64,000 nucleotides of DNA, taken from a bacterium. Its GTDB lineage: Bacteria > UBA8248. Below, piece after piece: positions 19,638 to 60,602 of this stretch. Below the pieces are notes generated by a model. That model had not been told where the DNA came from and did no database searches. It worked only from the letters and a program-made list of their open reading frames with translations. The position numbers were made by a program, and so were the translations under genes. The stretch covers positions 2,592,001 to 2,656,000 of the forward strand of contig CBDBBI010000010.1 of the NCBI GenBank assembly GCA_965202625.1, written 5' to 3'. Each line of letters begins with the position of its first letter. Position 1 is the stretch's first letter.

Positions 19638-19648
19638 ATTTTCGCTTC

Positions 19649-20416: not shown

Positions 20417-20426
20417 CGGAATAGCG
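20403..20426 (+). repeat. Tandem repeat (GAATAGCG)x3 over the endonuclease stop codon
   Basis: Read directly from the sequence. Confidence 0.85.
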
Positions 20427-20459
20427 GAGGGCGACAACTGTGAGGTTACGTCACAATAC

Positions 20460-20795
20460 TATCACACTCGGTGTTTGGAGCGTTTAGAATTAGATGATAC
20501 TGTAGTGCTGTTTCCTCCACCGCTCTTAGAATGTCGAACGTTTCTTCTTCAGTCCATTCTGGGTCCCTGAAATATATTCAGACTGGAGAGAAGCGATTTT
20601 TGTCCGATGCCCTATCTTTTCTTGAACACAATGTTCGGCTCAACGGATAAAGCTCCTTCATCATGGATAGTCTTGACATGGCGAAGGATTTCTCGTCGCA
20701 GCTTTCCTCAAAATCCCAACGCTTCGTTTGGACTCCATGTTTTTGGGCTTGTGCTGTGCCAGGCTTTTTCGCAAATCATCTGCTCTAGCCATCAT
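20460..20795 (-). pseudogene. Degraded nuclease-like gene remnant, possibly EcoRI-family
   Basis: Fragments in different frames: MMARADDLRKSLAQHKPKNMESK.. and ..RDPEWTEEETFDILRAVEETAL, with stops between; resemblance from memory only. Confidence 0.3.
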
Positions 20796-21225
20796 AGAAG
20801 TAATGTCCTTTCAATCCGTGAACGTCGAAAATCAACATCTCGCTATGAAATAGCACGCCTTTGTAGATGTCCTTGGGGGGTGAAACGACGAAGATTATCT
20901 CCGGATATGCGCCGTTGGCGAAGTTGCGCCAGCGGTGTCCAGATCGTGGAGTTTTTCCGGTCAGCATAAAATTTATTTCCGTCAACGCGATACATTACGC
21001 CACTGAAACGATAGCGCGCGGCGTTTTTTGAGGGGGCTGATAAGGGCTTTCGGGTGTGGGCGATTCAGCGTTTAGGCGTCCTTCATATCTCCCAGTCTAA
21101 GGTCGCTCCACATTTCCCGTATTCAGTCCTGGGCAGCCAATGGAGATGCGAGTTAGTTATACGTGCGGCCGCGTAGTATTTATGAGTTCGCAAGCGTTTT
21201 GAACCTGCGCTAGAATGTCCCTGCC

Positions 21226-24200
21226 ATGAGCGCGTACTCCTTTCATCCGTTGATAGCGCGCTGGTTCGGCGAGAAGTTCGGCGAGCCGAGCGCCCCGCAG
21301 GAGGCGGGCTGGCCGCAGATCGCGGCGGGGCGCGATGCGCTCATCACCGCGCCCACGGGAACGGGGAAGACGTTAGCCGCTTTTCTGTGGTCGCTCGACG
21401 ACCTCATTCAAAGGGCGCTCAGGGGCGCGCTTGCCGATGAGTGCCGCCTCATCTACGTTTCTCCCCTCAAGGCGCTCGGCAACGACATTCAGAGAAACTT
21501 GACGGCGCCCTTGAGCGAAATCCGTGCGCTCGCGCTACAGGGGGGCGTCAAACTGCCCGAGATCAGGGTGGCGGTTCGCTCGGGCGACACCTCGGCCCGT
21601 GAGCGTCGTCTCATGCTGAGGCGACGGCCCCATGTCCTTATCACCACGCCGGAGTCGCTTTACATCCTCTTGACGGCGGAGCGGAGCCGCGCGGTGCTCG
21701 AGACCGTGCGCGTCGTCATCGTCGATGAGATACACGCCGTCGCCGGAGATAAGCGGGGCGCGCATCTCGCTCTCTCTCTGGAGCGACTGGACGCGCTTTG
21801 TGGGCAGCGGCTTCAGCGCATTGGCTTGAGCGCCACGCAAAAGCCGATTGAGGAGGTCGCGCGCCTGCTCGTCGGCGCGGGAAGGAGCCGAGAGGACGGC
21901 GCCCCCGATTGCGCGATCGTGGATGTGGGGCATCTGCGGCGAATGGCGCTCTCCGTGGAGGTGCCTGATCAGGAAATCGGGCCCGTCGCCTCGCACGCGC
22001 TTTGGGGAGAGGTTTTCGACCGGCTCGCGGGCCACATCGAAGGACATCGGAGCACCATCGTGTTTGTTCACACGCGAAAGCTTGCCGAGCGCGTCGCCCA
22101 TCAGCTCACGGCGCGACTCGGAGAGGAGCGCGTCGCCGCCCATCACGGCTCCTTGTCCCGCAAAATCCGCCTCGACGCGGAGGAGAGGCTCAAATCAGGC
22201 GCGTTCTCCGCAATCGTCGCCACGGCGTCGCTCGAGCTGGGGATCGACATCGGCCACGTCGATCTTGTTTGCCATCTGGGCGCCCCGAGGACGCTCGCCT
22301 CCCTGTTGCAGCGCGTGGGCCGCTCTGGCCACTGGAAGGGCGCGACGCCCAAGGGAATCGTTTTTCCCCTGACGAGGGACGATCTTCTCCAGAGCGCGGC
22401 CGCGGTGCGCTCGGTGAGGGAGGGCGCCCTTGATCGCGTGATTTTCCCCGAAGCGCCGGTCGACGTCCTCGCCCAGCAGATCGTCGCCGAAGTCGCGGCG
22501 CGGGAAGAGGTGGAGGAGGAGGTGATCTGGGCACTCGTCAGGCGTGCGCAGCCCTACGCGCGGCTTGGGCGCTGCGTCTTCGAGGAAGTGCTAGAGATGC
22601 TCTCCGAGGGTGTCTCGACCAGTCGGGGCCGACGCGGCGTCCATCTGCACAGAGACCGCGTGAACGCCCTTTTGCGGCCGAGGCGCGGGGCGCGGCTCTG
22701 CGCCATCACCTCGGGCGGGGCGATTCCGGACACGGCGGACTACGATGTGATCGAGCACCCCGCGGAGACTTTCGTGGGCAAGGTGAACGAGGATTTTGCT
22801 GTAGAGTCGAACGCGGGCGACATCTTCTTGCTCGGCAATCATTCATGGCGGGTCAGGAGGGTGGAGCGCGACAAGGTGCGCGTGGAGGACGCGTGGGGGC
22901 TTCCGCCTAACATTCCTTTCTGGCTCGGGGAGGCGCCCGCACGCACGGCGGAACTCTCCGAGGCCGTCTCCCGCTTGCGGGCTACACTTGCGGAGCACCT
23001 GTGTGACGAGGATGGGGAGATTGGGTGGATGCGGGAGCAGTGCGGGTTGTGCGCCTCGGGCACGGCGCAGCTTCTTGCTTACGCGCGTGAGACGGCGCAG
23101 ATTTTGGGGCGCGTTCCCACGCAAGGCGAAATCGTGGCGGAGCGGTTTTTCGACGAGGCGGGCGGAATGCAGCTCGTGATTCACTCACCCTATGGCGGCC
23201 GCGTCAACCGGGCGTGGGCCCATACCCTCAGAAAGCGCTTTTGCCTCACGTTCGATTTCGAGCTTCAGGCCGCCGCGACCGACGACGGCATCGTGCTCTC
23301 GCTCTCCTCCCAGCACAGCTTTCCGCTGGAGTCGATTTTTGGTTTCACTCGCCTCGCCTCCTTGAGAAAGGACATGCTCCAGTCCGCCCTGCAATCGCCC
23401 ATGTTCGCTAACCGCTGGCGTTGGAACGCGACGCGCGCCCTCGCCCTGCCCCGATACGCTGGGGGGAAGAAGACACCGATCGCGCTTCAGAGGATGCGCG
23501 CGGAGGATTTGCTCGCGGCCGTTTTTCCGGCCCAGCTCGCCTGCCAGGACAACCACCATGGCCCAATCGAGCCTCCTGACCATCCCTTGGTGAACGAGAC
23601 GGTGGAGAATTGTCTGACCGAAGCGATGGACATCGACAATTTGAGAGAATTGATACGGGATATCGAAGGCGGAAGGGTGAAGACCTTCGCCGTGGAGACG
23701 CCTGCTCCCTCGCCCATGTCGCACGAGATACTGAACGCGAACCCCTACGCCTTCATCGACGATGCCCCGCTGGAGGAGCGCCGCTCGCGTGCCGTGCCGC
23801 TCAGGCGCGTCCTGCCCGAGAACGCGCAGAACGCTCAGCTGGACGCGGACGCCATTGAGGAGGTGCGCCGGGGAGCCTGGCCGGCTCCGAGAGACATGGA
23901 TGAGCTGCACGACGCCCTTCTCTCCTTGTGCGTGCTGCCTGATCAGGATGCGAGGGATTGGTTCGCCTGGGTGGGTGCGTTGCGTGCCCGGGGCCGCTTA
24001 GCCAGGGCGGTGTGGAGGGCGGGGGGCGCCATGTGCGAGGGATACGTTCCGGCTGAGCGGATGGCGTTTGTTCGTGCCGCGATTCCGGGCGTTGCGCTCA
24101 CGCCCGAGGAGATTCCCCTTCAGGTGGGAGAGACGAAAGCGGTTTCCAGGGAGACTGCGGCGCTCGTTCTCCTTCGGGGCTGGATGGAGTGCCTGGGGCC

Positions 24201-25557
24201 CGTGAGCGCGCAGGAGGTCGCCGCCCGCGTGGGGCTCGCATTGTCCGACGTCCATGTAGCCTTGGCCGCCCTTGAGGGAGAAGGCGCGGTTCTCAGAGGC
24301 CGCTTCGTGCGCCTCTCGCCCGATGCGCCAATTGAGTGGTGCGACCGCGCGCTGTTGAGCCGCATCCACCGGATGACGCTGGGAAAACTACGGCGCGAGA
24401 TCGAACCCGTCACGGCGGCGGACTTCATCCGGTATCTGCTCAGGTGGCAGCACCTGCATGAGGAGAGCCGGTTGCACGGGCGCGACGGCGTTCTGGAGGT
24501 GGTGCGCCAGCTCCAGGGCCTCGAACTACCCGCGCCCGCCTGGGAGGAGCGGATTCTCCCCGCCCGCATTCAGAATTACGACCCGGCTGACCTGGAGCAG
24601 CTGTGTCTCTCGGGTCTCGTCGTGTGGGGACGCCTGCGGCCGGGCGTCCCGCCCGATCCGCCTGAGCCTCCAACGGGCCGGATACGCCGCGCGACGTCCC
24701 AGAACGCGGGACCTACGCGCCGGGCGCTTCTGGCCTTTTTGCACAGAGAGGATATGGATATGTTCCTGAGTCCCCGGGGCGCGGGCGATGAATGGCGGCG
24801 AAATCTCTCGCGTCCGGCGCTTGAGGCGCTCGATTTTCTGGGCGCACGGGGAGCGTCTTTCCTTGCGGAGATCGCGCGGGCGACGGGCAGGCTGCGAACC
24901 GAGGTGGAGGAGGCGCTTTGGGAGCTCGTCTCGCGCGGTTTGGTGACAGGAGACGGCGTGGCGGGTCTCAGGGCGTTGATAATGAGCGAGAGGGAGAGGA
25001 AAAAGAGCGAACGAAGGCTCCGCGCTCTGCCGGGGGGCCGCGCCAAATCGCGCGAGGCGAAGAAGCGCTTCATGCCCGTGGGCCGCTGGTCACTCTGGGG
25101 GGTGGAGGACGTCCCCCTGGACGGTGAGGCCCGGCACGAAGCCCATGCGCGGCAGATGCTGAGAAGATACGGCGTCGTGATGCGCGAGCTCGCCGTCCGG
25201 GAATTCGCCGTTCCGCGTTGGCGCGAGCTCGTGGGAGTGTTTCGGCGTCTTGAGGCCAGGGGAGAGATTCGCGGCGGTCGCTTCGTCTCGGGCTTCACCG
25301 GCGAGCAGTTCGCCTTGCCGGAAGCCGTGGAGGCCCTGCGTGCCGTCCGCCGGATTCCGGCCCAAGGGAGGCCCACCATCGTTGACGCGAGCGACCCGAT
25401 GAATCTGTCGGGCATCATCACGCCGGGGCCCAAGGTTTCTATTCGTTCGCGCGACGTCATCCTCTATCGAGATGGTCTGGTGGCGGACTGCGGCCCGATC
25501 GGCGAGGTGCGAAGCCGCCTTGAGAACGAATCGCTCGGCTTGGGCCGAGGTGTATGA
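21226..25557 (+). CDS. lhr: Lhr-family large SF2 helicase with C-terminal domain
   Basis: APTGTGKT, SPLKAL, TTPESL, DEIH, SAT, HHGSLS, LELGIDIG, QRVGRSGH; full-length 1443 aa. Confidence 0.93.
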   Translation: MSAYSFHPLIARWFGEKFGEPSAPQEAGWPQIAAGRDALITAPTGTGKTLAAFLWSLDDLIQRALRGALADECRLIYVSPLKALGNDIQRNLTAPLSEIRALALQGGVKLPEIRVAVRSGDTSARERRLMLRRRPHVLITTPESLYILLTAERSRAVLETVRVVIVDEIHAVAGDKRGAHLALSLERLDALCGQRLQRIGLSATQKPIEEVARLLVGAGRSREDGAPDCAIVDVGHLRRMALSVEVPDQEIGPVASHALWGEVFDRLAGHIEGHRSTIVFVHTRKLAERVAHQLTARLGEERVAAHHGSLSRKIRLDAEERLKSGAFSAIVATASLELGIDIGHVDLVCHLGAPRTLASLLQRVGRSGHWKGATPKGIVFPLTRDDLLQSAAAVRSVREGALDRVIFPEAPVDVLAQQIVAEVAAREEVEEEVIWALVRRAQPYARLGRCVFEEVLEMLSEGVSTSRGRRGVHLHRDRVNALLRPRRGARLCAITSGGAIPDTADYDVIEHPAETFVGKVNEDFAVESNAGDIFLLGNHSWRVRRVERDKVRVEDAWGLPPNIPFWLGEAPARTAELSEAVSRLRATLAEHLCDEDGEIGWMREQCGLCASGTAQLLAYARETAQILGRVPTQGEIVAERFFDEAGGMQLVIHSPYGGRVNRAWAHTLRKRFCLTFDFELQAAATDDGIVLSLSSQHSFPLESIFGFTRLASLRKDMLQSALQSPMFANRWRWNATRALALPRYAGGKKTPIALQRMRAEDLLAAVFPAQLACQDNHHGPIEPPDHPLVNETVENCLTEAMDIDNLRELIRDIEGGRVKTFAVETPAPSPMSHEILNANPYAFIDDAPLEERRSRAVPLRRVLPENAQNAQLDADAIEEVRRGAWPAPRDMDELHDALLSLCVLPDQDARDWFAWVGALRARGRLARAVWRAGGAMCEGYVPAERMAFVRAAIPGVALTPEEIPLQVGETKAVSRETAALVLLRGWMECLGPVSAQEVAARVGLALSDVHVALAALEGEGAVLRGRFVRLSPDAPIEWCDRALLSRIHRMTLGKLRREIEPVTAADFIRYLLRWQHLHEESRLHGRDGVLEVVRQLQGLELPAPAWEERILPARIQNYDPADLEQLCLSGLVVWGRLRPGVPPDPPEPPTGRIRRATSQNAGPTRRALLAFLHREDMDMFLSPRGAGDEWRRNLSRPALEALDFLGARGASFLAEIARATGRLRTEVEEALWELVSRGLVTGDGVAGLRALIMSERERKKSERRLRALPGGRAKSREAKKRFMPVGRWSLWGVEDVPLDGEARHEAHARQMLRRYGVVMRELAVREFAVPRWRELVGVFRRLEARGEIRGGRFVSGFTGEQFALPEAVEALRAVRRIPAQGRPTIVDASDPMNLSGIITPGPKVSIRSRDVILYRDGLVADCGPIGEVRSRLENESLGLGRGV

Positions 25558-25886
25558 AATCCCTTGAAGCGCCTTGCGAGCACAGATTCAAGAATGCGCC
25601 GCCTGGCGCGCGAAGACGAATGGTTGCCTTCGCGCGGTCGGGCTTGCTGGGGGAGGAGCGCTCGGCGCCCCTGTGCTTGGCCGCCCCCTGCGAGCTCTCC
25701 GCGATTTGAAATAACTTACGGGTTTTGCCGGCGTCTCATCCTTGTCCGTTCACAAAGGGGCAGCCGAGGGGGAGAGGCGGAGACGTCGTGGGTCCGGAAC
25801 GCGAAATCCTGATCTTCAGGGGCACTCCACCTGAGCCGTTTTCGGGCGGGCGGCCTCCGTTTCCGAAAGACGAAAGAGAGGGGAAC

Positions 25887-26120
25887 ATGAGCGTATTCGT
25901 GGTCGGACACGTTGAGATCAAAAATGAGGAGGGATTCACCGACTACGCTGAGAAAGGGCTTGCGATCGTCCCCTCTTTCGGCGGCGAGTTCGTGATGTGT
26001 GGAGAGCTCACGAGGGTTCTGAGCGGCGCGCACGACAAGAGCACGTTCGCCATCCTGAAGTTCCCCGACCGCAACAAGGCGACGGACATCACGTTCCTAC
26101 CCTATGACGAGGCATTTTAG
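25887..26120 (+). CDS. DUF1330-family protein, apparently with an internal deletion
   Basis: MSVFVVGHVEIKNEEGFTDY..FGGEFV..ILKFP; only 77 aa, lacking the usual WYxSxEYQ helix. Confidence 0.6.
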   Translation: MSVFVVGHVEIKNEEGFTDYAEKGLAIVPSFGGEFVMCGELTRVLSGAHDKSTFAILKFPDRNKATDITFLPYDEAF

Positions 26121-26236
26121 GGGAGCAGCTGTTTCGTTGAAAAGCGTTCGTTGGGCACCCCCTTTGTGGAACAATCTGCTGACGTTTGCGACCCGGATGC
26201 GAGAATGCCAGACTATTTTGAAGGCGATTCGAGGCG

Positions 26237-27304
26237 ATGAACTCGCGTTTTATTCAGAGGACGCAAGTGGCTGACGCAGAGAGACGGAAATTTCCAGGTG
26301 GTTCTCGGCAGAGAGTTAATAAAGCCGGGCAGCAGGTTCGGAACAAGACTGCAGGAAATTCAGATTTTCAGGTTATTGATCACTGGCGTACTGCTCATTG
26401 GCGTGTGATAAATACATTCGGGTCTTTTCTTAGAATGCGGATAAGTCGCACAAGGCAAAGTGGAATCGTCGTGGCACAAAGACATAAACGTAAGCACACG
26501 ATTATCGATAAACTCAAACGATTTCCCAAGATGCAGTTAGCCCGCATGGATGATGTGGCGGGATGTCGTTTGATATTTGATAACATTCAGCAACTATACA
26601 AGTTTCGCAGTGACATTCACAAAGCAAAATTTAGGCACAAACTAAAGAATGAAATTGACAAATATGATTACATAAAGAGTCCCAAATTAAGTGGATATCG
26701 CGGAATTCACGATGTGTACGAGTACAATGTAAAGTCGCAAAACAGTCAAATTTCCAATGGGTTGTTGATTGAATTGCAGTATCGAACGCTTTCCCAACAT
26801 GCTTGGGCGACATGTGTTGAGTTGGTTGGTTTTTTGACTGATAACCAGCCGAAGTTTGAGCGGGGTGATGAGCGGTATCGGAATATTCTGCGCTTTTCAA
26901 GTGAAATCATTGCGCGCTCTGCCGAGAAGCGTTGTTCGAGCCTGAGGAATCTGGACGACAGAGAAGTAGTTAGGGGGTTTTTGGAACTTGATGACAAACT
27001 GAACTTTATGCAGATGTTGCGTGGTTTGAACACTGAGCAGGAATCGGATTCTCTCTATAAAAATATCATTTTGATTTTTCAAGAAATGGGAGATACCCCA
27101 CTTAAAATTCTCTCGTTTCGACATGCAACGGATGCATTGAAAAAGTTGTTCGAACTCGAAAATGAACCGTCCGGTAGGGATATTGTTTTGGTGAAAGGCG
27201 ATACCGCTGAAGGCATTCGTGAAGCATTCAAGAACTATTTTTCTGATGCGCGCAAATTCGTTGAGTTGATCAATCGTGGCTGTAGCGAACTTTCTGGGCA
27301 TTAA
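26237..27304 (+). CDS. RelA/SpoT synthetase-domain protein, fused CapRel-like toxin-antitoxin
   Basis: VAQRHKR..TIIDKL, RMDDVAGCR, SGYRGIH, IELQYRTLSQHAWA, and a C-terminal domain ending DIVLV..IREAFKNYFSDARKF. Confidence 0.82.
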   Translation: MNSRFIQRTQVADAERRKFPGGSRQRVNKAGQQVRNKTAGNSDFQVIDHWRTAHWRVINTFGSFLRMRISRTRQSGIVVAQRHKRKHTIIDKLKRFPKMQLARMDDVAGCRLIFDNIQQLYKFRSDIHKAKFRHKLKNEIDKYDYIKSPKLSGYRGIHDVYEYNVKSQNSQISNGLLIELQYRTLSQHAWATCVELVGFLTDNQPKFERGDERYRNILRFSSEIIARSAEKRCSSLRNLDDREVVRGFLELDDKLNFMQMLRGLNTEQESDSLYKNIILIFQEMGDTPLKILSFRHATDALKKLFELENEPSGRDIVLVKGDTAEGIREAFKNYFSDARKFVELINRGCSELSGH

Positions 27305-27399
27305 CGGTGTTGCTTCATGAGATCTGGAGATTTCGCCCTTAGGATTCCCATCAAGGATGTAACTCGATCTATTTCTTCGACGATTTTAGGACTTCACCC

Positions 27400-28005
27400 A
27401 TGCCTATCATCCGGCAGACGCCCGACGTTTCGAAATTCAACCCCGACATTGATTTGCCCTATCAACTTCGCCGGGAAGATTTTGCATTGGTCATGCAGGA
27501 CGTCTATGATTTCTTTTTCGACGTGAATACGCATCTGTTCAATAAAAGTCTCAAACGTCTGGATGAAATGCTGCGGCCCGCCGCGATGTCAGGGCTGGTC
27601 TCCGACATGGTTGCGGCGAGCATGGCGCAACATTCGCGAACCCTGGTCGAGAACCAGTACCACAACGGCCACCCGGACCTCATCGTGAACGGGATATACC
27701 CCAACGATGCAGTGAAGGCCGGAACAGAAGGCGTTGAAATCAAAAGCACTCGCAAATCAGGCGGAGCCGTCGATACGCATGGGGCGCGGAAGCAATGGAT
27801 GTGTGTTTTTGTTTATCAAGTTGATAACGAAACTGAACCCGCTGCAGATCGCGCCTCCATGAAATTCTCCGAAGTCTATCTCGGCTACGTCACTGTCAAT
27901 GATTTCCGTAGAAATGCGCGAAGCGAACTCGGAACGAGAACGGCTACCTTGAACAGAAGCGGCATTCAGAAGTTGCGGCGGAGTTGGGTATATCTGGACA
28001 CTTGA
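27400..28005 (+). CDS. Putative Type II restriction endonuclease
   Basis: GHPDL..GVEIKS (PD..ExK) motif; convergent with and overlapping an MTase. Confidence 0.6.
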   Translation: MPIIRQTPDVSKFNPDIDLPYQLRREDFALVMQDVYDFFFDVNTHLFNKSLKRLDEMLRPAAMSGLVSDMVAASMAQHSRTLVENQYHNGHPDLIVNGIYPNDAVKAGTEGVEIKSTRKSGGAVDTHGARKQWMCVFVYQVDNETEPAADRASMKFSEVYLGYVTVNDFRRNARSELGTRTATLNRSGIQKLRRSWVYLDT

Positions 28006-28900
28006 GCGCTTCTAGTTTTGGCATGGCCCGTTTCGCAAGTTGCACGTACCGTTTCGACACTTCGACGCCAACGCTTCGGTAGCCGATGTGATTGGCGGCG
28101 GCGAGCGTTGAGCCTGAACCCGCGAACGGATCGAGTATTACGCCCTTTTGGAGTGGAAGAGCCGCGCGGACCAGTTTCCGCAAAAACGACTGGGGTTTCA
28201 ACGATGGATGTGGCGCCAAACTCTTCTCCGTCGCCTTGGTCGTGTGCGACGGGATGACGTCACCGAACGGTTTGTCGTTCGATACGCGGCGAAGCCCGCC
28301 AGTTTCCCACTTGCGCAAATTGTCCTGAACGCGGCCGTCCAAGGGATTACGGAACAAAAGCCAGGGTTCGGCCATCGAGCGCGGCATCACCGTGACGTCG
28401 GAGAATTCTTTATGCGCGTTCTTCGGACGGTCGCCTCCCCGCATCGTCATGACGAGTCGGGTGATGACGCCCCGGTTTTCTAAACCGGCGGCGTCAAGTG
28501 CTGACGCGACGATATGAGAAACCAGGGGATTGGACGCCATGAATATATGAGCGCCGGGAACGAGGACGCGTGATACGCTACGACCGAAACGCCCGAAAAA
28601 TTCGCGCATGTTTTCGAGATCGGACGCGCTCAAAGTGGTGAAGCGTGGAAGCGGCGAACGCCGGTATCCGTCGAACGACGGAGGAATTCGCCAGACCCCA
28701 CCTCTGCCTTGACGAAGTTTGCGCTGCTCTTTTTCCGTGTATTCAACCAGGCCGTAAGGTGGGTCAGTCACAACCGCATGAATGGTGTTCTCTCGGCAAT
28801 TCTCCAACCACTCGAAACAGTCTGCCTGATACAAAACTGCTTCGCCGTGAATGCTCGCGGGCTTGGCAACTCTGCATGTTTTTTCTGGGACGACGGTCAT
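27944..28900 (-). CDS. Beta-class N4-C/N6-A DNA methyltransferase
   Basis: VVTDPPYG, HPSLKP, ILDPFAGSGST. Confidence 0.9.
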   Translation of the reverse strand: MTVVPEKTCRVAKPASIHGEAVLYQADCFEWLENCRENTIHAVVTDPPYGLVEYTEKEQRKLRQGRGGVWRIPPSFDGYRRSPLPRFTTLSASDLENMREFFGRFGRSVSRVLVPGAHIFMASNPLVSHIVASALDAAGLENRGVITRLVMTMRGGDRPKNAHKEFSDVTVMPRSMAEPWLLFRNPLDGRVQDNLRKWETGGLRRVSNDKPFGDVIPSHTTKATEKSLAPHPSLKPQSFLRKLVRAALPLQKGVILDPFAGSGSTLAAANHIGYRSVGVEVSKRYVQLAKRAMPKLEALKCPDIPNSAATSECRFCSR

Positions 28901-38930: not shown

Positions 38931-39559
38931 GGTGGGAATCTGGACGCATGGCTTTTGCATCTTGGCGATGCCGATTTTGTTTGATGATTTTTTTGAGCGC
39001 GTTGAGCACAGGCTGTGCCTATGAAGTTTTTAGAACGCAAAACATTTCTCAGCCGACAAAAATACGCGCCCTCCGGCGTATTGCCGTCACCCCTTTTCGT
39101 TATTCGAGTGACTGGACGGGACTTTTCCGCAAGATCTACAGGCAAGCAGGTTTAGCAATACCCAAAGGAAAGAAGGTCGAGTCGGTGGAGGGGACGTTTT
39201 TGATTCGGGACGCTATCACCTCCAAAGGATATGAGGCTGTTTCATTCCCCAAAGAATTGCGGATAAAAAAAACAGGTGGTTCACTGCGCTCGGAGGGGAA
39301 AACTGCGCAAACCTACCCATTAATACCCAGAAATTCGGGCGCCCAAGCCATCATATTTGCTAGAGGCAGCCACCTCTGCAGCGATATGGAATCGTGCGTC
39401 GCCAAAGTGGAAATACTTTTGGTGGATGCCAGCTCTGGCGAAGAACTATGGAAATCGCGGGCGAGAGGAACGACGGGACTGTCCCAGGGGGATGAAATGA
39501 AAGCCGCCGTTCAGGGCGCGCTCGAAGAATTTCCCGACAATTTTCCGGTTTCTGGTTGA
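38927..39559 (+). CDS. Putative lipoprotein
   Basis: Lipobox LSTGC; RRIAVTPF and LLVDASSGEELW motifs; ATGA overlap with the upstream gene. Confidence 0.65.
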   Translation: MRWESGRMAFASWRCRFCLMIFLSALSTGCAYEVFRTQNISQPTKIRALRRIAVTPFRYSSDWTGLFRKIYRQAGLAIPKGKKVESVEGTFLIRDAITSKGYEAVSFPKELRIKKTGGSLRSEGKTAQTYPLIPRNSGAQAIIFARGSHLCSDMESCVAKVEILLVDASSGEELWKSRARGTTGLSQGDEMKAAVQGALEEFPDNFPVSG

Positions 39560-39712
39560 AGTCAAGAAATTTCATCCATATCCATGCCCGATACCAGGCG
39601 GCCATGACGATTTGTCGTTTTTGATGCGGACGTATATGACAAAATGACAATTTCATTCATGTTTTTTCTTTCTATCTCATTGATATAGAAGTTGTTATAG
39701 AATAGAGAAAAA

Positions 39713-39728
39713 TGGCATAACGTTTGCA
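39713..39728 (+). promoter_or_regulatory. Sigma-54 (-24/-12) promoter
   Basis: TGGCAT-AACGT-TTGCA with canonical GG-N10-GC spacing. Confidence 0.8.
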
Positions 39729-39739
39729 TTAAAGATCAG

Positions 39740-39893
39740 AAGCGCTAATCAGGGCGTTCATAGGCGGCACGCCTTGGGTAGCCGGCGAGAGGAGTTGCCG
39801 ATTGGGTCGGCGCTCCTCCGCCACGCTATTATTTCTCTCACGTTTCTCCTCCCTTCGTGAGAGCCTCCTCCCGGAGACGGGAGGAGGTTTTTT
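39740..39893 (+). ncRNA. Candidate sigma-54-dependent small regulatory RNA
   Basis: Non-coding stretch between the sigma-54 promoter and an intrinsic terminator, with four hairpins, one exposing TTTCTCCTCCCTT; 5' end estimated. Confidence 0.62.
39864..39893 (+). terminator. Rho-independent terminator
   Basis: CCTCCTCCCG-GAGA-CGGGAGGAGG-TTTTTT. Confidence 0.9.
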
Positions 39894-40029
39894 ATTTGCT
39901 TCTCGGCGACATGATTTTCCCCTGCGTGGTTTGCAATCGGGGGATGTTGGTTTATAGTGCATTTTGCATGAAATCATGCGGCGTTGATTAGGTGTTGAGA
40001 ACTCATCCATTAAAAGTGAGGAATCGGAA

Positions 40030-41028
40030 ATGGTTACAGGCAAAGTGCGCCTCGCCTCTATCGGGCTTGGGTGGTGGGCTGGTGTGTTAGCGGATGCTTT
40101 GAATCGAAGTGGTTCCGGCGAAGTAGTTTCAGGTTTCGCGCGGAGTGCAGACGCCCGAAAGATGTTTTCCGAGAAATACAGTTGCCGAGCGGCGGGCAGA
40201 CTAGACGATATATGGAAAGACCCGGAGGTAGACGGCGTTCTCATCGCGACGCCTCATTCCACGCACCTTGACATGATCTCCCAAGCCGCATCGGCCGGCA
40301 AGCACGTATTCGTCGAGAAACCTCTTACCTTGACGGCCGAAGAGGCAAAAAAGGCGATTGAGGTGACGTCAAGCGCGAATGTGACTCTACAAGTGGGACA
40401 TCATCGCCGCCGATTCGGTGCCAATCGCAAGATCAGGGAAATGATAGACGGCGGCGAGCTGGGTATGCTGCACCAGCTGGAAGCTAATCTCTCGCTTCCT
40501 ATGGGGTTTGAACCCAGACAAGGTTGGCGCAACGATGCGGAAGAATGCCCGGTGGGATCCATGACGGGTCTCGGCGTGCATATGGTCGATAATCTGCAAT
40601 ACTTGGCTGGTCCCGCAAAAAAAGTATGTGCGTTTAGTAAAAAATTATTGGGCAAAACGAATCTCGACGACACGACGAGCATTATCATTGAATATGAGCG
40701 CGGCCCGTTGGGCTATATTGGAACCACTTTTGTTATTCCCAAAATTTGTGATACCGCGGCTTTTGGTACGAAAATGAGAGCATACAGTCTTGAGGAAGGC
40801 GGAAAACTTCATGTGGCCAAGGTAGGCGAAGAGGTGTTGACGGAGGTTGCTGTCGTAGGCGGAGACGCCTTGGCGGATGAGATGGATGAATTTTGCAAGT
40901 GCATCCGGGGAGAGGCGACTCCTGAAACGGGCGGACACGAGGGGCTCGAAGTCGTCTCGGTGCTTGAGGCGGTTGTCAAGAGCGTGAACACAGGCCAGGT
41001 CGTGGAGGTGGCGTCCGTTCGGGGATAA
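40030..41028 (+). CDS. Gfo/Idh/MocA-family oxidoreductase
   Basis: IGLGWW, IATPHSTH, GKHVFVEKP, GVHMVD. Confidence 0.92.
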   Translation: MVTGKVRLASIGLGWWAGVLADALNRSGSGEVVSGFARSADARKMFSEKYSCRAAGRLDDIWKDPEVDGVLIATPHSTHLDMISQAASAGKHVFVEKPLTLTAEEAKKAIEVTSSANVTLQVGHHRRRFGANRKIREMIDGGELGMLHQLEANLSLPMGFEPRQGWRNDAEECPVGSMTGLGVHMVDNLQYLAGPAKKVCAFSKKLLGKTNLDDTTSIIIEYERGPLGYIGTTFVIPKICDTAAFGTKMRAYSLEEGGKLHVAKVGEEVLTEVAVVGGDALADEMDEFCKCIRGEATPETGGHEGLEVVSVLEAVVKSVNTGQVVEVASVRG

Positions 41029-41055
41029 GTCTTGAGCGTTGTTTTGGAGGGAAAA

Positions 41056-43302
41056 ATGTCTCGGATGACTTATGTTGGCGCGTCGCCGACCAAAGCTGAC
41101 GCCCTGGCGAAAGCGGTTGGTGACACCATCTATGGCGATGATTTCCATATGCCGGGGGAGATATACGGCAAAGTTGTTCGCGCCCCAATGGCTCCGGCAA
41201 GAATCAAAAAGATAGACGCGAGCAAGGCGCTTGCACTGCCGGGTGTGCATTGTGTTTTAAGCGCGCAGGACATTCCTGGCAAAAATGCCGGCCGTTATCC
41301 TGATTTTCCTGTACTCGTAGATAATGTTGTCACCGGTATCGGCGATGCTGTTGCCCTCGTGGCTGCGGACACCAGGGATTTGGCGGATGAGGCGGCCACG
41401 CTCGTAAATGTCGTTTATGAAAGGATTTCGGGCGTTTATGACTTCACTAGTCTTGCGCAAGGCGAGGTGATCTGCGACTGGAAAACGGAGAAGGGGAATG
41501 TGGCTGCTGGGTTCGAAAAAGCGGACATGGTGGTAGAGAATATCTATTTTTCCGCTTGTCTTGATCACGCGTTCATTGAACCTGAAGGTGGCGTCGCCTG
41601 GATCGATGAGCGTGGCGTGGTGAACATTCGAGTCCCCACCCAAATGATAGAGAATTATCAAAACGTGGCGAGAATTTTAGGTTTGCCATTGAGCCGCGTT
41701 CGATATGATTGTCCGATGTTGGGCGGGGCCTTTGGCGGGAAAGAACATCCGCTTTTGGGTGCCTTTATGGCGTTGTTGGCGATGGAAACGGGACGTCCGG
41801 TGCACATGGCCTATTCCCGAGAGGAAACCATGAACACCGGTAGTAAAAAACACCCTTTCCTTATGAAATACAAGACCGGTGCCACGAAAGATGGAAAACT
41901 CACAGCACTTGAGGTGGATATCATCGGCGATGCGGGGGGGTATGCGGCCAACAGCAAGGGTCTGCTTTTAGGGGCGCTTGTGTTGAGCGGCGGACCCTAT
42001 GAGATCCCCAACGCAAGAGGCCGTTCGCGTGCGGTCAAGACGAACAACCCCTTTACCGAGGCGATGCGCGGCGTGGGGGCGAACCAAGTATGTTTCGCCT
42101 ATGAGGCCCAAATGGATGAGCTGGCGTGTCAATTAGGGATGGACCCCTTGGAGTTTCGCGAGAGGAATTTTATCAAAAAAGGCGCGACGCTCATGCAAAA
42201 ACAACCCGTGCCCTCACGAGTGATGTTGCCCGAGTTGGCTGAGAAAATCAAAAAGCTCGTCGGTCGCTCGGTAGGACGCACGCCCGAGAAAGATCATGGC
42301 CCATGGCGCGTGGGTGTCGGGATTATCGCAAATATCGGGGGATATGGGAGACCCAGGAACGAGGGGGAAGTCTATGTGTCCATTGATGCCGACGGCAGCG
42401 TCAACGTGCGCACGGGTGCTTCTGACGTGGGAGCTGGCCAAACCCAGACGAATCGCCAAATCGCGGCCGAAGCCCTAGGCGTTTCTTTAGAAAACGTGAC
42501 GGTGACCATGTCGGATTCTCACGTTACTCCCCTTGTGGGCGTGACGGCTGGTAGTCGGCAGACGATGATCTCGGGCGGTTCTTGTTATCGGGCATCAACG
42601 CAGTTGCGGGAGAGGGTGCTTAGGGGCGCAGCGGAGCTGCTCGAAGCCGCGCCCGAGGATTTGGAGATGAAAGATGGAAGGATTTCTGTGAAAGCCGCCC
42701 AGGAGCGTGCTGTCGGTTTCACCGAGGCTATCGCCCAGTGCGGGAGGATGGGAATCGACCTTCACACAGTGGGAAAAATGAAAATCGGCGTTCATGAGTA
42801 TGAGGGGAATGAACGATATGGCGATGCCGGTGGCTGGATGGATTATGTTTTTGGCGTTCACGCCGCCGAAGTGGAAGTGAACGTCGATACGGGGGAGCTT
42901 CGCGTGCTGAACTACTGGTCGGGGCATGACGTTGGCCAGGCCATTAACCTGCAGCATGTGGAGGGGCAGTTTGAGGGCGGCGCGATGATGGGAGTCGGCC
43001 ATGCCTTGACTGAGGAGGTTCTTACGCAAAAAGGTACGCTTCTCAACAATGAATTTCATGGCTATCTCATTCCCACCTCGGTAGATGCGCCTGAGTGGGA
43101 CAACGTCATACTGGAGTCAGGCGAGGGGCTTGGACCTTATGGGGCGAAAGGGATTGGAGAGCCCCCCTGCACCGCGGGCGCCGCGGCTGTAGCCTGTGCG
43201 GTTGGCCAGGCGATTGGCGCGCGCATTACGCGCATCCCCATCACGCCAGATCACGTGATGGAGACGTTGGGCCGTCTGAACAAAAATGGAAGCCAAAACT
43301 AA
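41056..43302 (+). CDS. Xanthine dehydrogenase-family molybdopterin-binding (large) subunit
   Basis: HAFIEPE, GGAFGGK, AMRGVG, DVGAGQ, TAGSRQT, KGIGEPP. Confidence 0.92.
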   Translation: MSRMTYVGASPTKADALAKAVGDTIYGDDFHMPGEIYGKVVRAPMAPARIKKIDASKALALPGVHCVLSAQDIPGKNAGRYPDFPVLVDNVVTGIGDAVALVAADTRDLADEAATLVNVVYERISGVYDFTSLAQGEVICDWKTEKGNVAAGFEKADMVVENIYFSACLDHAFIEPEGGVAWIDERGVVNIRVPTQMIENYQNVARILGLPLSRVRYDCPMLGGAFGGKEHPLLGAFMALLAMETGRPVHMAYSREETMNTGSKKHPFLMKYKTGATKDGKLTALEVDIIGDAGGYAANSKGLLLGALVLSGGPYEIPNARGRSRAVKTNNPFTEAMRGVGANQVCFAYEAQMDELACQLGMDPLEFRERNFIKKGATLMQKQPVPSRVMLPELAEKIKKLVGRSVGRTPEKDHGPWRVGVGIIANIGGYGRPRNEGEVYVSIDADGSVNVRTGASDVGAGQTQTNRQIAAEALGVSLENVTVTMSDSHVTPLVGVTAGSRQTMISGGSCYRASTQLRERVLRGAAELLEAAPEDLEMKDGRISVKAAQERAVGFTEAIAQCGRMGIDLHTVGKMKIGVHEYEGNERYGDAGGWMDYVFGVHAAEVEVNVDTGELRVLNYWSGHDVGQAINLQHVEGQFEGGAMMGVGHALTEEVLTQKGTLLNNEFHGYLIPTSVDAPEWDNVILESGEGLGPYGAKGIGEPPCTAGAAAVACAVGQAIGARITRIPITPDHVMETLGRLNKNGSQN

Positions 43303-50008: not shown

Positions 50009-52534
50009 TCAGAAGCCGGCGTTCAGTCCGGTCGTCGTCGCTGAGAAGTCCTCATCGCTGAACACCAGGTGGAACATGCCTTTGGCCGGGCCGTCGCTCA
50101 CCGTCATTGTTCCGCAGTTGAAGGCGTTTTGCAGGGTCTCCAGCACTTTGCGCTTGTAGTCGGTGTCATCGTTTCCGCGCAGGTGCGCGCCCTTGGTCTC
50201 GATGACCAAGATGTGCGACTTGCCGTCGGGCTCTCCGCCCATCGCCACGAAGTCGGGCCAGATGCGCTGCTGCCTCCAGCCCCGCAGGTAGTAATCCCCC
50301 CGCTGGCGCACGGCCACCCGGTGCCACCATCGCAACGCCTTTTGCTCGTCAAGATAACGGGCGAACTTGCGCTCCAGCTCGGTGTCGAATTGCTGCGCGA
50401 ACACCGGCTCGAAAAGGCTGAGTTGCGCTGGTTGGCCGTCGTTCCTCGCCAGCAGCCCCCACTCCTCCGATACGGAGATTTTATAGCTCTCCGCCATGCG
50501 GAAGTTGGGCGGCCCCGTTTTGAGGTCGAAGCGGATTTCGCCCTCGCGCAGTTTGCGGCGAAACGCCTCTTCCGCCTGTCGCTCCACGAGAGTGGTCACG
50601 TGTTCGCGCAGCGTGAAAGCGAGGGAGGAGCGCCGATCGTGAATGTCCGCGTCCGTCTCGCCCTTGTTCCGTAATCGGTCAATCAGTTTCTGGACGACGC
50701 GCGCCGCTTGCCACGGGTTGGGGATGACGTCGGACAGGCGACGGGCATACCATGATATTTTCACCGTCTTGTCGATATACGGTTCGTGCGCATCATGAAA
50801 AACGGGAGGAGCGTCGCCGAGGTCGACGGTCGCCGATTGCCAGCTGGCCGGTTGGGGAAGAGCTTCTCCCGGGTTCGGGGCGTCAACGGCGTCCCAGTCG
50901 ATGGCGGGCAGGATATGCCGTTGGTAGTCCAGCTCAATCCATCCCTTTCCGTCCTTGTGCTGCACGAGTGGCAGGAAAATGTCCTCCCCCCGAAACCGCT
51001 CCCGCCGCTGCGCGGGAACGGGCGGCAACTCCCCGGACGCGCCCATCACCTCGTCCATGAGACCCGTCAAGCCCTCCTGTTCCAGTCCCTTCTTGACGTT
51101 GCCGACCGCCGCGCCCACGTCGGCGTTCCAGCAATACACGTAGCACTGATCCAGCCGCTCCCGCCCCGTGCGCCGCGCATGGGGCTGGCGCATCACCCGC
51201 CCCACCAGTTGGGTGATCGCGCGCTGGGCTTGGGTGTTGTCCAGCATCACCAACAGATAGGCGAAGGGGCAGTCCCATCCTTCCATCAACGCCGCCTTGG
51301 TGATTATCCACCGCACCGGCGAGGATTCGGAGAGCAGATTCTCGCGGCCCAATTCGTCGTTCTCCGCCGACTTCACGCGCACCGCCTCGGGGGAGACGCC
51401 CAGGTTGTGAACCAGATAATCGCGCGCGTCCTCGGCGTGAACGCGCTCTCCGTCGCGCTGATCCTTACCCGTGCGTTCCACGCGCACCACCGAGATGGGA
51501 CGCACGTAGCGGCCCTCGCCGTGCTGGAGCGATTCCGCCTCCGCCGCCAGCCTCTCCAGCTCCTCGTGGGCTTGCGCCAAGGCGTATTGCCATTCGACGT
51601 TCTTGAACGAGGTCACCTGCACCGGCAGCTTTATCATCTCCTCCTCTTTCAGGGCGACGCCGGAGACGTCCGCCAGCAGGTTGCTGACGCCCCGGTTCGG
51701 CGTGGCGGACAGTTCGAGCACCAGCCTGGGATTCAGGCGATTCACGGAGCGGACGAACTCATCGTTTGCTTCTTTCCTTGGTCCGTAGGCCTTGTGCGCC
51801 TCGTCCAACACCACCACAGGGCGCAGCGTCTTGAATACGTTGAACAGGCTGTGCTTGACGGGCCCGTTTTTCGAGGCGCGTTCAAGATACGGATGGTCGC
51901 GCAGCAGGCGGCCTTCCCCCAGCGCGTCGTCCGCATCCGGAAAGAGCGTGGGATACCGCCCGGAATCCCGAAACATCCGGAGGAATTCCCTGCCCTTTCG
52001 CCGGTTGGCGGCGGGCAGCATCAGCAGCATCACGCACAGATAATGGGCGACGTCGGAGGCGGTGAACGGGTCGTCCTTCTCCAGCAGTTTGACGCGCCCG
52101 CCGCTGGCGCGCTCCAGCATCTGCCGGTAGGGATGCTCCCTGCTCCAAAGAGCAGTCTTGGTCTGTTCGTAGATGGCGCGGGTCGGCGTTATCCAGAGCG
52201 TGAGCCCGGCTTGTCGGTTCAGCCGCTCCAGGGCGGCGGCGGCGAGCAGCGTCTTGCCCCCGCCGGTTGGCACCTTGAAGCAGACGTGCGGAATGGGGCG
52301 TCCTGCCCCGTCCGTGCGGCTCACGTAGTCGCCTGCGGTTTCCGCCACGCCGCCGATTTTCGCCAGTTTTTGCCAAGCGGTTTTGGGGTGGTTGCGCACG
52401 TCGTCGGGAACGTCGGCGTTGGCGTCCCGCAACGCTTTGGCGGCTTGCGCGGATCTGATCCGCTGCTCCTCCAGCGCGTTGTGCCAGCGGACGAAAGCCT
52501 TTAGGACGGCCACCTGGTATTCTTTCAGCTCCAT
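50009..52534 (-). CDS. Type III restriction enzyme Res subunit
   Basis: VPTGGGKT, DEAH, SAT, EGWD, QLVGRVMR, C-terminal WPDF..IETKG nuclease motif. Confidence 0.92.
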   Translation of the reverse strand: MELKEYQVAVLKAFVRWHNALEEQRIRSAQAAKALRDANADVPDDVRNHPKTAWQKLAKIGGVAETAGDYVSRTDGAGRPIPHVCFKVPTGGGKTLLAAAALERLNRQAGLTLWITPTRAIYEQTKTALWSREHPYRQMLERASGGRVKLLEKDDPFTASDVAHYLCVMLLMLPAANRRKGREFLRMFRDSGRYPTLFPDADDALGEGRLLRDHPYLERASKNGPVKHSLFNVFKTLRPVVVLDEAHKAYGPRKEANDEFVRSVNRLNPRLVLELSATPNRGVSNLLADVSGVALKEEEMIKLPVQVTSFKNVEWQYALAQAHEELERLAAEAESLQHGEGRYVRPISVVRVERTGKDQRDGERVHAEDARDYLVHNLGVSPEAVRVKSAENDELGRENLLSESSPVRWIITKAALMEGWDCPFAYLLVMLDNTQAQRAITQLVGRVMRQPHARRTGRERLDQCYVYCWNADVGAAVGNVKKGLEQEGLTGLMDEVMGASGELPPVPAQRRERFRGEDIFLPLVQHKDGKGWIELDYQRHILPAIDWDAVDAPNPGEALPQPASWQSATVDLGDAPPVFHDAHEPYIDKTVKISWYARRLSDVIPNPWQAARVVQKLIDRLRNKGETDADIHDRRSSLAFTLREHVTTLVERQAEEAFRRKLREGEIRFDLKTGPPNFRMAESYKISVSEEWGLLARNDGQPAQLSLFEPVFAQQFDTELERKFARYLDEQKALRWWHRVAVRQRGDYYLRGWRQQRIWPDFVAMGGEPDGKSHILVIETKGAHLRGNDDTDYKRKVLETLQNAFNCGTMTVSDGPAKGMFHLVFSDEDFSATTTGLNAGF

Positions 52535-52540
52535 CGTCCG

Positions 52541-54369
52541 CTATCCCGCCTGGTGCAGTTCATAAGGCAGTTGGCAGAAGGTGACGCCCATGTGCGTGAG
52601 CGCGCGCTGGCCGACGTATTTGCCCGCTCCGAAGACGATGGCCGTTTTCTCGTCTCGCCGGCTGGCCTCGCCGATGCGCTCCGCCCGTTCCTCGTTCAGT
52701 ATCGCCTCGTTGCCGCGCAGGTAATCCGCGTCGGGTTCGTAGAGAAGGTAGTAGTCGGTCGCGTCGCCTCGATGAAACAGGCCGTCCTCGTTCAGACGCT
52801 CCAGGGCGTTCGCGCCGCTGGATGCTCCGCAAGCCGTGTGCAGAAGCCAGGCGGCCAGGGCGGAGTAGGTCGGCAGGGCGTCTCCCCTGAGCATCCCCTC
52901 AATCGTTATCGGCGCGCCCAAAGTGCAATAGGTGAACGCGCCGCCCAGACCCTCTCTGAGGGATTCGTCCTTCGCCCCCGGCACGCCCCTGATGACGCGC
53001 CGCACCCGCTCGGCGGTGATGGAATCCGCGTAATCCTCGCATTCGATGAGAATGAACCTGCGGTTTCCGCCGTCCTCCTTGTTCAGGGCGAGAACGGCGT
53101 GGGCCGTCGTGCCCGAACCGGCGAAGGAGTCTAGGACGATGTCGCCGGGGCCAACGTTCGCGAATCGAAGTAGATCCGCCACAAATGGAACTGCTTTAGG
53201 GAAGTCAAACAACCTTTGTCCATCGAATATGGTCTTGATGGTGTTGGTTCCGTTCGCCGCTGAGTATTGCGTTTTGTTCCATAGCGAGGTGGGTTTTTCT
53301 CTGAAATTGCCGTCCGCGTCACTTGGACGAATTTTTATGGTGAACTGATATCCCATCCTTTTGTGCGGCTTGATCAGCAGATTATGCGGCTCTCTTTCTA
53401 TTTTTTGCTTTCCCCACCGCCAAACGGCCGCTTTCCCCTGCCCGTCCGTAGGATAAATTTCCGTGTTTGAAGACGAGCGCCGCTTGGTAGATATGGAAAG
53501 GTCAGTTCCTATAAAGATCGGAAAATGCAGATTGGGGCGGTCCTCGGGAGTTCCGCTCATTCCTATTCGGACGAGCCCGCTTCCCAAGCGATAATCGCCT
53601 CTTTTGTCCTTGTACCATCCTTCTTTCGGCGGGGTTTTTATGAACGTCCCCATATTTACTCGGGATGCGTCTTTTGCAAAAATGTGAACGTGTTCATTCA
53701 CTTCCCGCAGCCATTTTCCCGACACCGCCCCAAGATTCTGAATCAGGACAAGCGTGTCCAGAAAGTTATTCTCCCCGAATATCTCCTCCATAATACCCAG
53801 GAGTCGCCATTGTTCATGATCGTCAATGGAGACGAAAATCACGCCGTCATCTGCCAATAGTTCCTTGAGCAGATGCAGTCTTGGCCACATCATGCAGAGC
53901 CATTTGTCGTGGCGTTCGAGGTCTTCTCCGTCAACGGGGCTGTTCTGGGCGAACCACGCTTGCATCAGCGGGCTGTTCACGCGGTCGTTATACACCCAGG
54001 CTTGGCTTCCCGTGTTGTAGGGCGGGTCGATATAGACGCACTTGATTTTGCCGGCGTAGCGGGGAAGGAGCGCCTTCAGGGCGTGCAGATTGTCCCCGTG
54101 GATGATATAATTATTTTCTGGCTCTCTGCTCTCTGCTCTCTGCTCTCTGCTCTCTGCTCTCTGCTCTCTGCTCTCTGCTCTCTGCTCTCTGCTCTCTGCT
54201 CTCTGCTCTCTGCTCTCTGCTCTCTGCTCTCTGCTCTCTGCTCTCTGCTATGAGACAGTGCGTCGCCGCATTCTGCGGATTTGGCTTCGTCGGAAACCAG
54301 CGGTCGGTAGGGAACGGTGAGGTGGTGGGCGTAAACGTGCTGCTTGCCCTTGAAGTCAATCGTGGGCAT
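52541..54369 (-). CDS. mod: Type III Mod methyltransferase, phase-variable, out of frame (OFF) in this sequence
   Basis: MPTIDFKGKQ start, repeat tract, then IIHGDNLHALKALLP..YIDPPYNTG and LDSFAGSGTT in a different frame; span is 1829 nt. Confidence 0.88.
54121..54249 (+). repeat. Simple sequence repeat (GCTCTCT)x18 plus GCT inside the mod 5' region
   Basis: Counted directly: 129 nt perfect run. Confidence 0.97.
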
Positions 54370-60259: not shown

Positions 60260-60335
60260 GCTGGCGTAGCTCAGTGGGTAGAGCGGCTGATTTGTAATCA
60301 GTAGGTCGGAGGTTCGAGTCCTCTCGCCAGCTCCA
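60260..60335 (+). tRNA. tRNA-Thr(TGT)
   Basis: GCTGGCG/CGCCAGC acceptor stem, anticodon loop TTTGTAA, GTTCGAG, CCA. Confidence 0.97.
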
Positions 60336-60555: not shown

Positions 60556-60602
60556 ACTGACACATCGTTGCGGCGGCAGGGAAGAGCGTTTTCGATTCAG
60601 AG

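Follow-up and report, generated by a model that had tools for sequence, protein, structure and literature searches.

Among the described systems closest to the locus treated here are small RNAs (sRNAs) transcribed with sigma-54 under the control of a dedicated regulator. The Qrr siblings are mutually homologous RNAs of about 100 nt that depend on Hfq and share a seed, while GlmY/GlmZ, NrsZ and CrcZ act as a RapZ decoy, through processed repeats and as an Hfq/Crc sponge, respectively. The pairs LuxO and Qrr1-4, GlrR and GlmY/GlmZ, NtrC and NrsZ, and CbrB and CrcZ are listed in a table of PMC7602753, and PMC4253122 and bioRxiv 10.1101/2021.07.01.450815 also treat NtrC-NrsZ and Qrr, respectively. 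We analysed a candidate of this kind in a 64,000-nt stretch of DNA (the window; positions 2,592,001 to 2,656,000 of contig CBDBBI010000010.1, assembly GCA_965202625.1) from a bacterium of the GTDB lineage UBA8248, for which a sequence-only reading had proposed a stand-alone sRNA gene with a sigma-54 promoter, an enhancer-binding protein as activator, a strong terminator and an anti-Shine-Dalgarno (anti-SD) loop. The stand-alone gene, its sigma-54 control with an enhancer-binding protein and its terminator gained support from the promoter and terminator sequences, from conservation and from extra copies of the RNA. On the strength of sequence comparison, positions 39739-39893 are confirmed as a real and previously uncatalogued small regulatory RNA gene behind a predicted sigma-54 enhancer-type promoter, and it is likely that the sRNA is independently transcribed and sigma-54-dependent.

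The locus shares with Qrr1-5/LuxO of Vibrio a response-regulator-type enhancer-binding protein acting with sigma-54, small terminator-ended RNAs and more than one sRNA gene per regulator, two RNA genes being found here behind the same tandem upstream sites; it differs in that these two RNAs are non-homologous, that no Hfq gene was found and that Rfam gave no Qrr match. With GlmY/GlmZ-GlrR, NrsZ-NtrC and CrcZ-CbrB it has in common the path from a two-component system through sigma-54 to an sRNA, but no sequence or Rfam relation, and for the modes of action of those RNAs no counterpart was detected. A search of Rfam 15 returned no family at the gathering score at the locus, the five tRNAs being the only matches in the window, in agreement with the novelty that had been claimed. 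Under permissive settings the best resemblance was to anti-hemB (RF02837; 22.7 bits, E 0.0054, gathering score 49.5), and alpha-r14 (RF02344) also appeared at 20.6 bits (E 0.12, gathering score 58.8), both being sRNA families with CUCCUCCC loops. Both the RNA described here and anti-hemB of Burkholderia have a terminator preceded by a hairpin whose loop is UCUCCUCCCU, but the alignment is confined to 39836-39895 and skips 26 positions of the model, and hairpins 1 and 2 have no counterpart. Members of the alpha-r14/cuckoo family have two to four hairpins on variable stems, each loop with CCUCCUCCC (PMC4615179 and PMC10746234), and the cuckoo member NfeR1 has a sigma-70 promoter (PMC10746234). 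In the present RNA, by contrast, a single loop carries the motif (CUCCUCCC), and this in the window's genome alone, the exact 9-mer sits in the stem of the terminator, hairpins 1 and 2 are conserved in their stems and the promoter is of the sigma-54 type. Because it does not share the traits of alpha-r14/cuckoo, the sRNA is filed as a new RNA family inside a known kind of system, from two-component system to sigma-54 to sRNA. A literature search on Nitrospina, small RNA and sigma-54 gave no report of such an RNA, and this uncultured lineage is not known to have any regulatory RNA described before.

Promoter, structure and distribution of the RNA gene

The promoter (Table 1) is the sole exact match to TGGCAY-N5-TTGCW in the window, and the wider pattern TGGYAY-N5-TTGCW has just four exact matches in the 3.09-Mb genome, this one included, with only two of the four being intergenic. 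The -24/-12 element, with GG at -24 and GC at -12 as in the sigma-54 consensus TGGCAC-N5-TTGCW, is conserved in all 23 primary copies of the genus and in all 15 distant homologues, and rpoN is present in the genome (201 bits). The imperfect inverted repeat reported earlier upstream of this promoter is present, but two 13-bp palindromic sites, spaced 32 bp centre to centre, describe it better, and both are conserved in the genus and in 15/15 distant homologues. The first lies in a block, ATGACGATTTGTCG, that is kept across the genus alignment and has related sites in distant genera, and the second has the consensus TGACAAAATGTCAATTT in relatives. Centred near -128 and -96, the two palindromes lie within the range of about 80-150 bp from the promoter at which activator sites are expected. 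The AT-rich spacer between the sites and the promoter (39655-39712) contains an IHF-like site whose pattern, taken alone, occurs in the window about as often as chance predicts (29 times, with 23.5 expected); a TATC-N4-TTGATA block is conserved in relatives and recurs at the promoter of the second candidate RNA described below, and the genome has four genes of the HU/IHF family. These comparisons establish the architecture of the promoter.

The start of the RNA, as predicted from promoter geometry, and its end at the U-tract would give a transcript of about 155 nt. Positions 39738-39895 fold at -82.7 kcal/mol (z -6.23), a stability reached by none of 200 shuffles, and every element listed in the sequence-only reading (repeat, AT-rich stretch, promoter, hairpins and terminator) was found where it had been placed. 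The fold confirmed the hairpins at 39784-39822 and 39835-39863, and the one given as 39751-39775 exists but is only the inner part of a longer hairpin 1. A 51-amino-acid open reading frame (ORF) at 39802-39957 was rejected, as its TTG start reads TCG in 8/28 genus sequences and its frame crosses the terminator; with no conserved start codon or frame, the earlier view that the segment holds no convincing sense ORF was borne out.

A covariance model was built from 28 genus sequences (23 primary and five extra copies), and together with the distant homologues these gave an alignment of 43 sequences from seven genera. In this alignment, which was fitted to the covariance model and so favours pairing figures, 96.2% of cells are in standard pairs, compared with 43-53% with slid partners, and compensatory double changes occur in 24 of 49 base pairs, with none of 500 shuffles reaching the observed values. 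An independent MAFFT/RNAalifold analysis of the genus sequences recovered all four helices, nine of the pairs being compensatory, so that covariation in relatives, which had been named as a check on the structure, agrees in both analyses and establishes a conserved, covarying fold. In hairpin 1, both sides have changed in 9/16 pairs, and the apical AGGCGGCAC is unchanged in 43/43 sequences. Hairpin 2, with the consensus GGCG-N3-GGAG...CGAUYGGNUCG...CUCC-N2-CGCC, has 7/17 pairs that never vary and 3/17 with double changes; the four pairs of its GGAG:CUCC helix are kept in 43, 43, 40 (plus three G-U) and 42 of the 43 sequences, with flanking pairs that covary. A linker, CCACG-NN-AUYAU, is conserved in 43/43 sequences, as is the presence of the C-rich 5' arm of the terminator, which shows double changes in 7/9 pairs across the family. 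Hairpin 3 is essentially confined to the window's genus, where the window's own change from G-C to A-U in its stem is compensatory (alignment columns 106/128), and is absent in g19, g21 and g2, three of the seven RNA-bearing genera. Judging from the alignment, hairpins 1 and 2, which with the linker are present in all 43 sequences, are the invariant core of the RNA.

The whole 300-nt unit, including upstream sites and promoter, is 72-77% identical in 22/22 genus genomes. Matches to the covariance model were obtained in 37 of the 51 genomes of the phylum sample and in 36 of the 41 of the family, in seven of its nine genera, with E values of 1e-11 to 1e-30 in the six genera other than the window's own, establishing a family-wide distribution. 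The model found no match in the one g3 genome (87% complete), in the four g22 genomes (2.0-2.2 Mb) or in nine genomes of three other families. A loose motif scan of named records gave 112 loci, mostly chance, 15 of which contain the RNA core (as a regular expression); the 13 visible titles among these name Nitrospinota (three), an uncultured Nitrospinaceae, a Candidatus Tectomicrobia and plain 'bacterium' (eight), and all the records are metagenome-assembled genomes. The covariance model can be used for annotation.

Activator and second candidate RNA

The window encodes a PAS histidine kinase directly followed by an NtrC-family regulator, a pair with AtoS/AtoC-, ZraS/ZraR- and NtrC-like matches that are all below equivalog cut-offs. 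Only two proteins in the genome, which is 99.7% complete, have the full Sigma54_activat domain (246 and 241 bits). The second of these enhancer-binding proteins, of GAF-AAA+-HTH type, is encoded outside the window, 2.6 kb upstream of the other intergenic exact promoter (G000:C10:2088895-2088910, plus strand; L179:4896-4911). That promoter precedes a 73-amino-acid ORF and Usp and RimK-like genes, and the repeats upstream of it, of the CGATAAATCG type, differ from those of the sRNA. Outside g22, 36 of the 37 family genomes have a full-length orthologue of the window's regulator (70-88% identity), and so do 35 of the 36 family genomes bearing the RNA (at least 70% identity, full length). In the four g22 genomes only a 48-49% match to the AAA+ part was found, and the RNA was likewise not found; this joint absence is weak evidence because the g22 genomes are reduced. 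By elimination and co-occurrence, then, the window's regulator is probably the activator of the sRNA, and the suggestion of the sequence-only reading that the NtrC-like protein fills this role is strengthened, as an inference.

A second candidate RNA (RNA-2) was found outside the window, on the minus strand of G000:C10 at ~1744820-1745210, with an RNA part of about 188 nt (L181:1525-1712:-). Upstream of it are TGACATTTTGTCA and CGAAAAATAGTCA, 32 bp centre to centre, followed by an IHF-like TATC-N4-TGATA block and the promoter TGGCACGTTTCGTGCA, and the RNA ends in a hairpin with an invariant single-stranded AUUCCUUCC just before it. When the whole genome was scanned for tandem sites at a spacing of 31-33 bp, four pairs emerged, of which only the window's and that of RNA-2 are intergenic and followed by a sigma-54 promoter. 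RNA-2 is conserved in 17 of the 18 genus genomes searched; its consensus fold has 46 pairs with just three compensatory (10 sequences), no match was found in Rfam and no reading frame survives in the window's genome. As the model of the first RNA matches G000 only once, the two RNAs are taken to be non-homologous. The shared arrangement of sites points to one putative activator with two small-RNA genes. The sigma-54 system here is minimal: besides rpoN it has two activators and some three promoters, of which two appear to yield small RNAs, and it offers a compact, testable case of a two-component system with riboregulation as its output.

Mode of action

In the account that we prefer, to which we give a joint probability of about 0.6 for the sigma-54 sRNA gene, its activator and pairing in trans with ribosome-binding sites, the PAS histidine kinase would phosphorylate the NtrC-family regulator, most likely that at 10796-12172, which would bind as two dimers to the palindromes ~96 and ~128 bp upstream. 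The DNA in between would take an IHF-type bend, and the regulator would activate sigma-54 RNA polymerase at 39713-39728, and transcription beginning near 39739 and stopping at the intrinsic terminator at 39893 would produce the ~155-nt RNA with four hairpins. We infer that the RNA most likely acts in trans and independently of Hfq, with an exposed C/U-rich element that would pair with purine-rich ribosome-binding regions of mRNAs, and with the invariant hairpins 1 and 2 as a structural or partner-binding core. In the window's genome the pairing element would be the hairpin-3 loop UUUCUCCUCCCUU, although for this element, and for any targets, we offer no more than a guess. Taken by itself, the step from sRNA to occlusion of ribosome-binding sites through the C/U-rich element is tentative, and we hold it somewhat less probable than an even chance.

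The sequence-only reading had made the anti-SD loop (CUCCUCCC) the defining seed of the RNA, and this did not hold up in relatives, where it is found in the hairpin-3 loop of one genus sequence, the window's own. The other two CUCCUCC copies are base-paired, one in the 3' arm of hairpin 2 and one in the 5' arm of the terminator, and the hairpin-3 loop of the window is unpaired with probability 0.93. What survives of the claim is a weaker form, an accessible C/U stretch before the terminator. When each sequence was folded and a C/U-rich element defined as five or more consecutive pyrimidines, three or more of them C, such a run was found in the hairpin-3 loop of 26/28 genus sequences, at unpaired probabilities of 0.56-0.93, and as a separate run ahead of the terminator in 8/15 distant sequences (g17, g18 and g20). 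The anti-SD loop of the window is thus a real but lineage-specific version of a recurrent, non-universal feature, and it calls for caution that the most striking part of this RNA is recent and lies outside its conserved core.

Several observations weigh against the preferred account. The CUCCUCC loop is specific to a single genome among the 28 genus sequences, most relatives carrying ACUACCCCC, and the 7/15 distant homologues from g19, g21 and g2 have no C/U run outside the terminator, so that a family-wide function must rest on hairpins 1 and 2, which pairing through the C/U element leaves unexplained. The loop complement has 205 near-matches in the genome (up to two mismatches), the sole exact one being the locus itself, and choice of targets by it would be unspecific because the complement is too SD-like. 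A duplex ranking of three RNA segments against 2517 guessed translation-start regions singled out nothing convincing, a crude ranking with guessed starts and no accessibility term that we used neither for nor against the account; in it the neighbouring oxidoreductase gene ranked 1542, 2455 and 1391, its operon not being enriched, and the kinase gene reached rank 30 with one segment but fell to 1847 and 272 with the other two. The 99.7% complete genome yielded no Hfq gene. As for the activator, one genome (G024, 87% complete) has an orthologue of the regulator and no RNA match, and another (G041, 91% complete) has the RNA with no orthologue found, both being fragmented assemblies.

A serious rival, which we nevertheless consider unlikely, keeps the same sigma-54 RNA and makes the invariant core of hairpins 1 and 2 its working part, binding or sequestering a protein, an RNA or a small ligand by way of the AGGCGGCAC loop, the GGAG:CUCC helix and the GAUYGGNUC loop, with hairpin 3 as an accessory in some lineages. 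This fits the finding that hairpins 1 and 2 and the linker are the only parts common to all 43 sequences and that hairpin 3 is missing from g19, g21 and g2, and the loops and the central GGAG:CUCC, near-invariant beyond what pairing needs while their flanks covary, would be well accounted for; sRNAs of the sigma-54 class that sequester proteins are also known, as CbrB-CrcZ in the table of PMC7602753. No candidate partner was found, however: no CsrA gene, as would go with a sponge of the CsrB/RsmZ type, was detected in the 99.7% complete genome, and the loops, inspected by eye, lack the repeated GGA or A-rich motifs of known sponges. The conserved loops could, moreover, equally be pairing seeds. 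A wider reading, which seems doubtful to us, would have the PAS-kinase/NtrC pair signal only via RNA, its whole detectable sigma-54 output being two unrelated, Hfq-independent sRNAs, and would make the hairpin 1-2 core, that is, the invariant AGGCGGCAC loop and an SD:anti-SD helix with its near-invariant GGAG:CUCC, a new module with a protein, the ribosome or a ligand as its partner.

The RNA gene and the neighbouring operon

Downstream of the RNA, at a distance of 137 nt and in the same orientation, is its syntenic neighbour, an operon of a Gfo/Idh/MocA oxidoreductase and a molybdoenzyme of the xanthine dehydrogenase (XDH) family. Three further observations weigh against the preferred account. 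The gene order (membrane protein, lipoprotein, RNA, oxidoreductase, XDH-family molybdoenzyme) is kept in all primary genus copies and in 14/15 distant loci, across seven genera; five extra copies in the genus have no recognisable -24/-12 element and no upstream sites; and transcript support is a single contig that gives neither strand nor ends, may reflect carry-over of DNA and runs 14 nt past the U-tract. Since the gene order is so conserved, a role as leader of the operon was weighed, in which the sigma-54 promoter would be a second operon promoter and the RNA a conditional terminator, as in an attenuator or riboswitch. The extra genus copies also precede a co-oriented gene, for a sodium:solute symporter, and by eye the 5' arm of hairpin 2 (GAGAGGAG) could pair with the 5' arm of the terminator (CCUCCUCC) to form an antiterminator. 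The overrun of the contig past the U-tract would fit such a leader as well.

We regard such a leader as improbable, as a gene behind an attenuator or riboswitch would rely on read-through and lack a promoter past the terminator, and here the downstream operon has a sigma-70-like promoter, placed after the terminator and before the oxidoreductase gene. In the genus this promoter is kept as TTTTCAAGCG...TTGGGTTATGGTG, and most of the 14 distant loci, inspected by eye, show a box like TTG-N3-TAT-N2-T. The terminator, with its 10-bp G+C stem and U6, covaries as an independent helix, and the alternative pairing, again by eye, is not kept beyond GGAG:CUCC/UUCC in g17 and g2. Full or partial copies of the unit also adjoin unrelated genes. 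One genome (G043) has the unit twice, the second time complete from upstream sites through sigma-54 promoter to RNA and beside unrelated genes, and the five extra genus copies lie 5-7 kb away, between an ARPP-1-domain gene and the symporter gene, with structures that are intact and compensated (L032:1492-1643, L033, L034, L035 and L036, in G016, G002, G011, G012 and G010). As the genes upstream of the RNA are syntenic too, its linkage to the operon may be plain conserved gene order, and, with synteny so tight, RNA and operon may also be linked in function.

Metatranscriptome data, available as contigs from four runs of one study, were also compared with the locus. In one run a 153-nt contig covers 39755-39907 with no differences and contains the RNA alone, while contigs of the oxidoreductase mRNA, present in all four runs, begin at 39993-40039. 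In none of the four runs does a contig extend from the RNA into the operon, and 39300-39750 and 39908-39992 are uncovered there, an absence that is itself no evidence. These contigs faintly suggest separate transcription of the RNA. With its own promoter downstream for the operon, the copies in other contexts and the contig of RNA alone, the gene appears to be independent of the neighbouring operon, as the sequence-only reading had held, and not merely the leader of the oxidoreductase. The remaining explanation, that the spacer is without function and owes its hairpins and its promoter match to chance, can draw on the number of -24/-12 patterns with up to one mismatch in the window, which is not enriched (four found, 3.0 expected), and on the chance level of the IHF pattern, but is contradicted by the identity over 300 nt throughout the genus, by the model matches in six other genera and by compensatory changes exceeding all 500 shuffles and all slid controls, and is practically untenable.

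Table 1 Features of the sRNA locus, its candidate activator genes and the adjoining operon, by position in the window
Feature	Position	Strand	Remarks
PAS histidine kinase	8607-10796	+	domain matches
NtrC-family response regulator/enhancer-binding protein	10796-12172	+	receiver-AAA+-HTH_8; domain matches
Upstream activator site 1	39605-39617	+	TGACGATTTGTCG; 13-bp palindrome, type TGAC-N5-GTCR; about -128 from inferred start
Upstream activator site 2	39637-39649	+	TGACAAAATGACA; relatives' consensus TGACAAAATGTCAATTT; about -96
IHF-like site (predicted)	39673-39685	-	TATCAATGAGATA (plus strand TATCTCATTGATA); one mismatch from consensus WATCAANNNNTTR
Sigma-54 promoter (predicted)	39713-39728	+	TGGCATAACGTTTGCA; TGGCAT-N5-TTGCA (-24/-12); exact match
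Small RNA, about 155 nt, four hairpins	39739-39893	+	start from promoter geometry (+/-2 nt), end from U-tract
Hairpin 1	39744-39782	+	covarying basal stem; apical AGGCGGCAC invariant
Hairpin 2	39784-39822	+	SD-like GAGAGGAG paired with CUCCUCC; loop AUUGGGU; most conserved part
Hairpin 3	39835-39863	+	13-nt loop UUUCUCCUCCCUU at 39843-39855
Intrinsic terminator	39864-39893	+	10-bp G+C-rich stem 39864-39887; 5' arm CCUCCUCCCG; GAGA loop; U6 39888-39893
Sigma-70-like promoter of downstream operon	39931-39958	+	TTGCAA-16-TATAGT; between terminator and oxidoreductase gene
Gfo/Idh/MocA oxidoreductase	40030-41028	+	Pfam; NCBIfam below cut-offs
XDH-family molybdopterin subunit	41032-43302	+	Pfam; NCBIfam below cut-offs

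Two smaller features were noted around the RNA and its neighbour. In G014 (L037:1432-1500, and likewise L027) ~69 extra bases that start like the 5' end of the RNA separate the sigma-54 promoter from it, apparently through a partial duplication that would lengthen the transcript at its 5' end; the two matches lie on separate contigs, have nearly the same flanking sequence and may be a duplicate from assembly. A small palindromic hairpin (39966-39979, GCATG-AAAT-CATGC) in what is presumably the 5' leader of the oxidoreductase gene is conserved in the genus, and its GAAATCAT/GCAATCAT loop region resembles the linker of the RNA, GCAAUCAU, in the same sense.

Elsewhere in the window, the regions 18759-28900 and 50012-53995 contain DNA methylase genes (three N6_N4_Mtase) and genes for a DUF6996/DUF6997 protein, an Lhr-type helicase, a RelA/SpoT-domain protein and a ResIII helicase, and may be islands of restriction-modification or defence. 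The sequence TGGCATCAAGTCTGCA (19589-19604), in the 3' end of a methylase gene and immediately ahead of the DUF6996/6997 gene, is one mismatch from the sigma-54 consensus and probably a chance match. Five tRNA genes flank the gene for elongation factor Tu at 60260-62460, followed by the gene for ribosomal protein L11, an ordinary arrangement.

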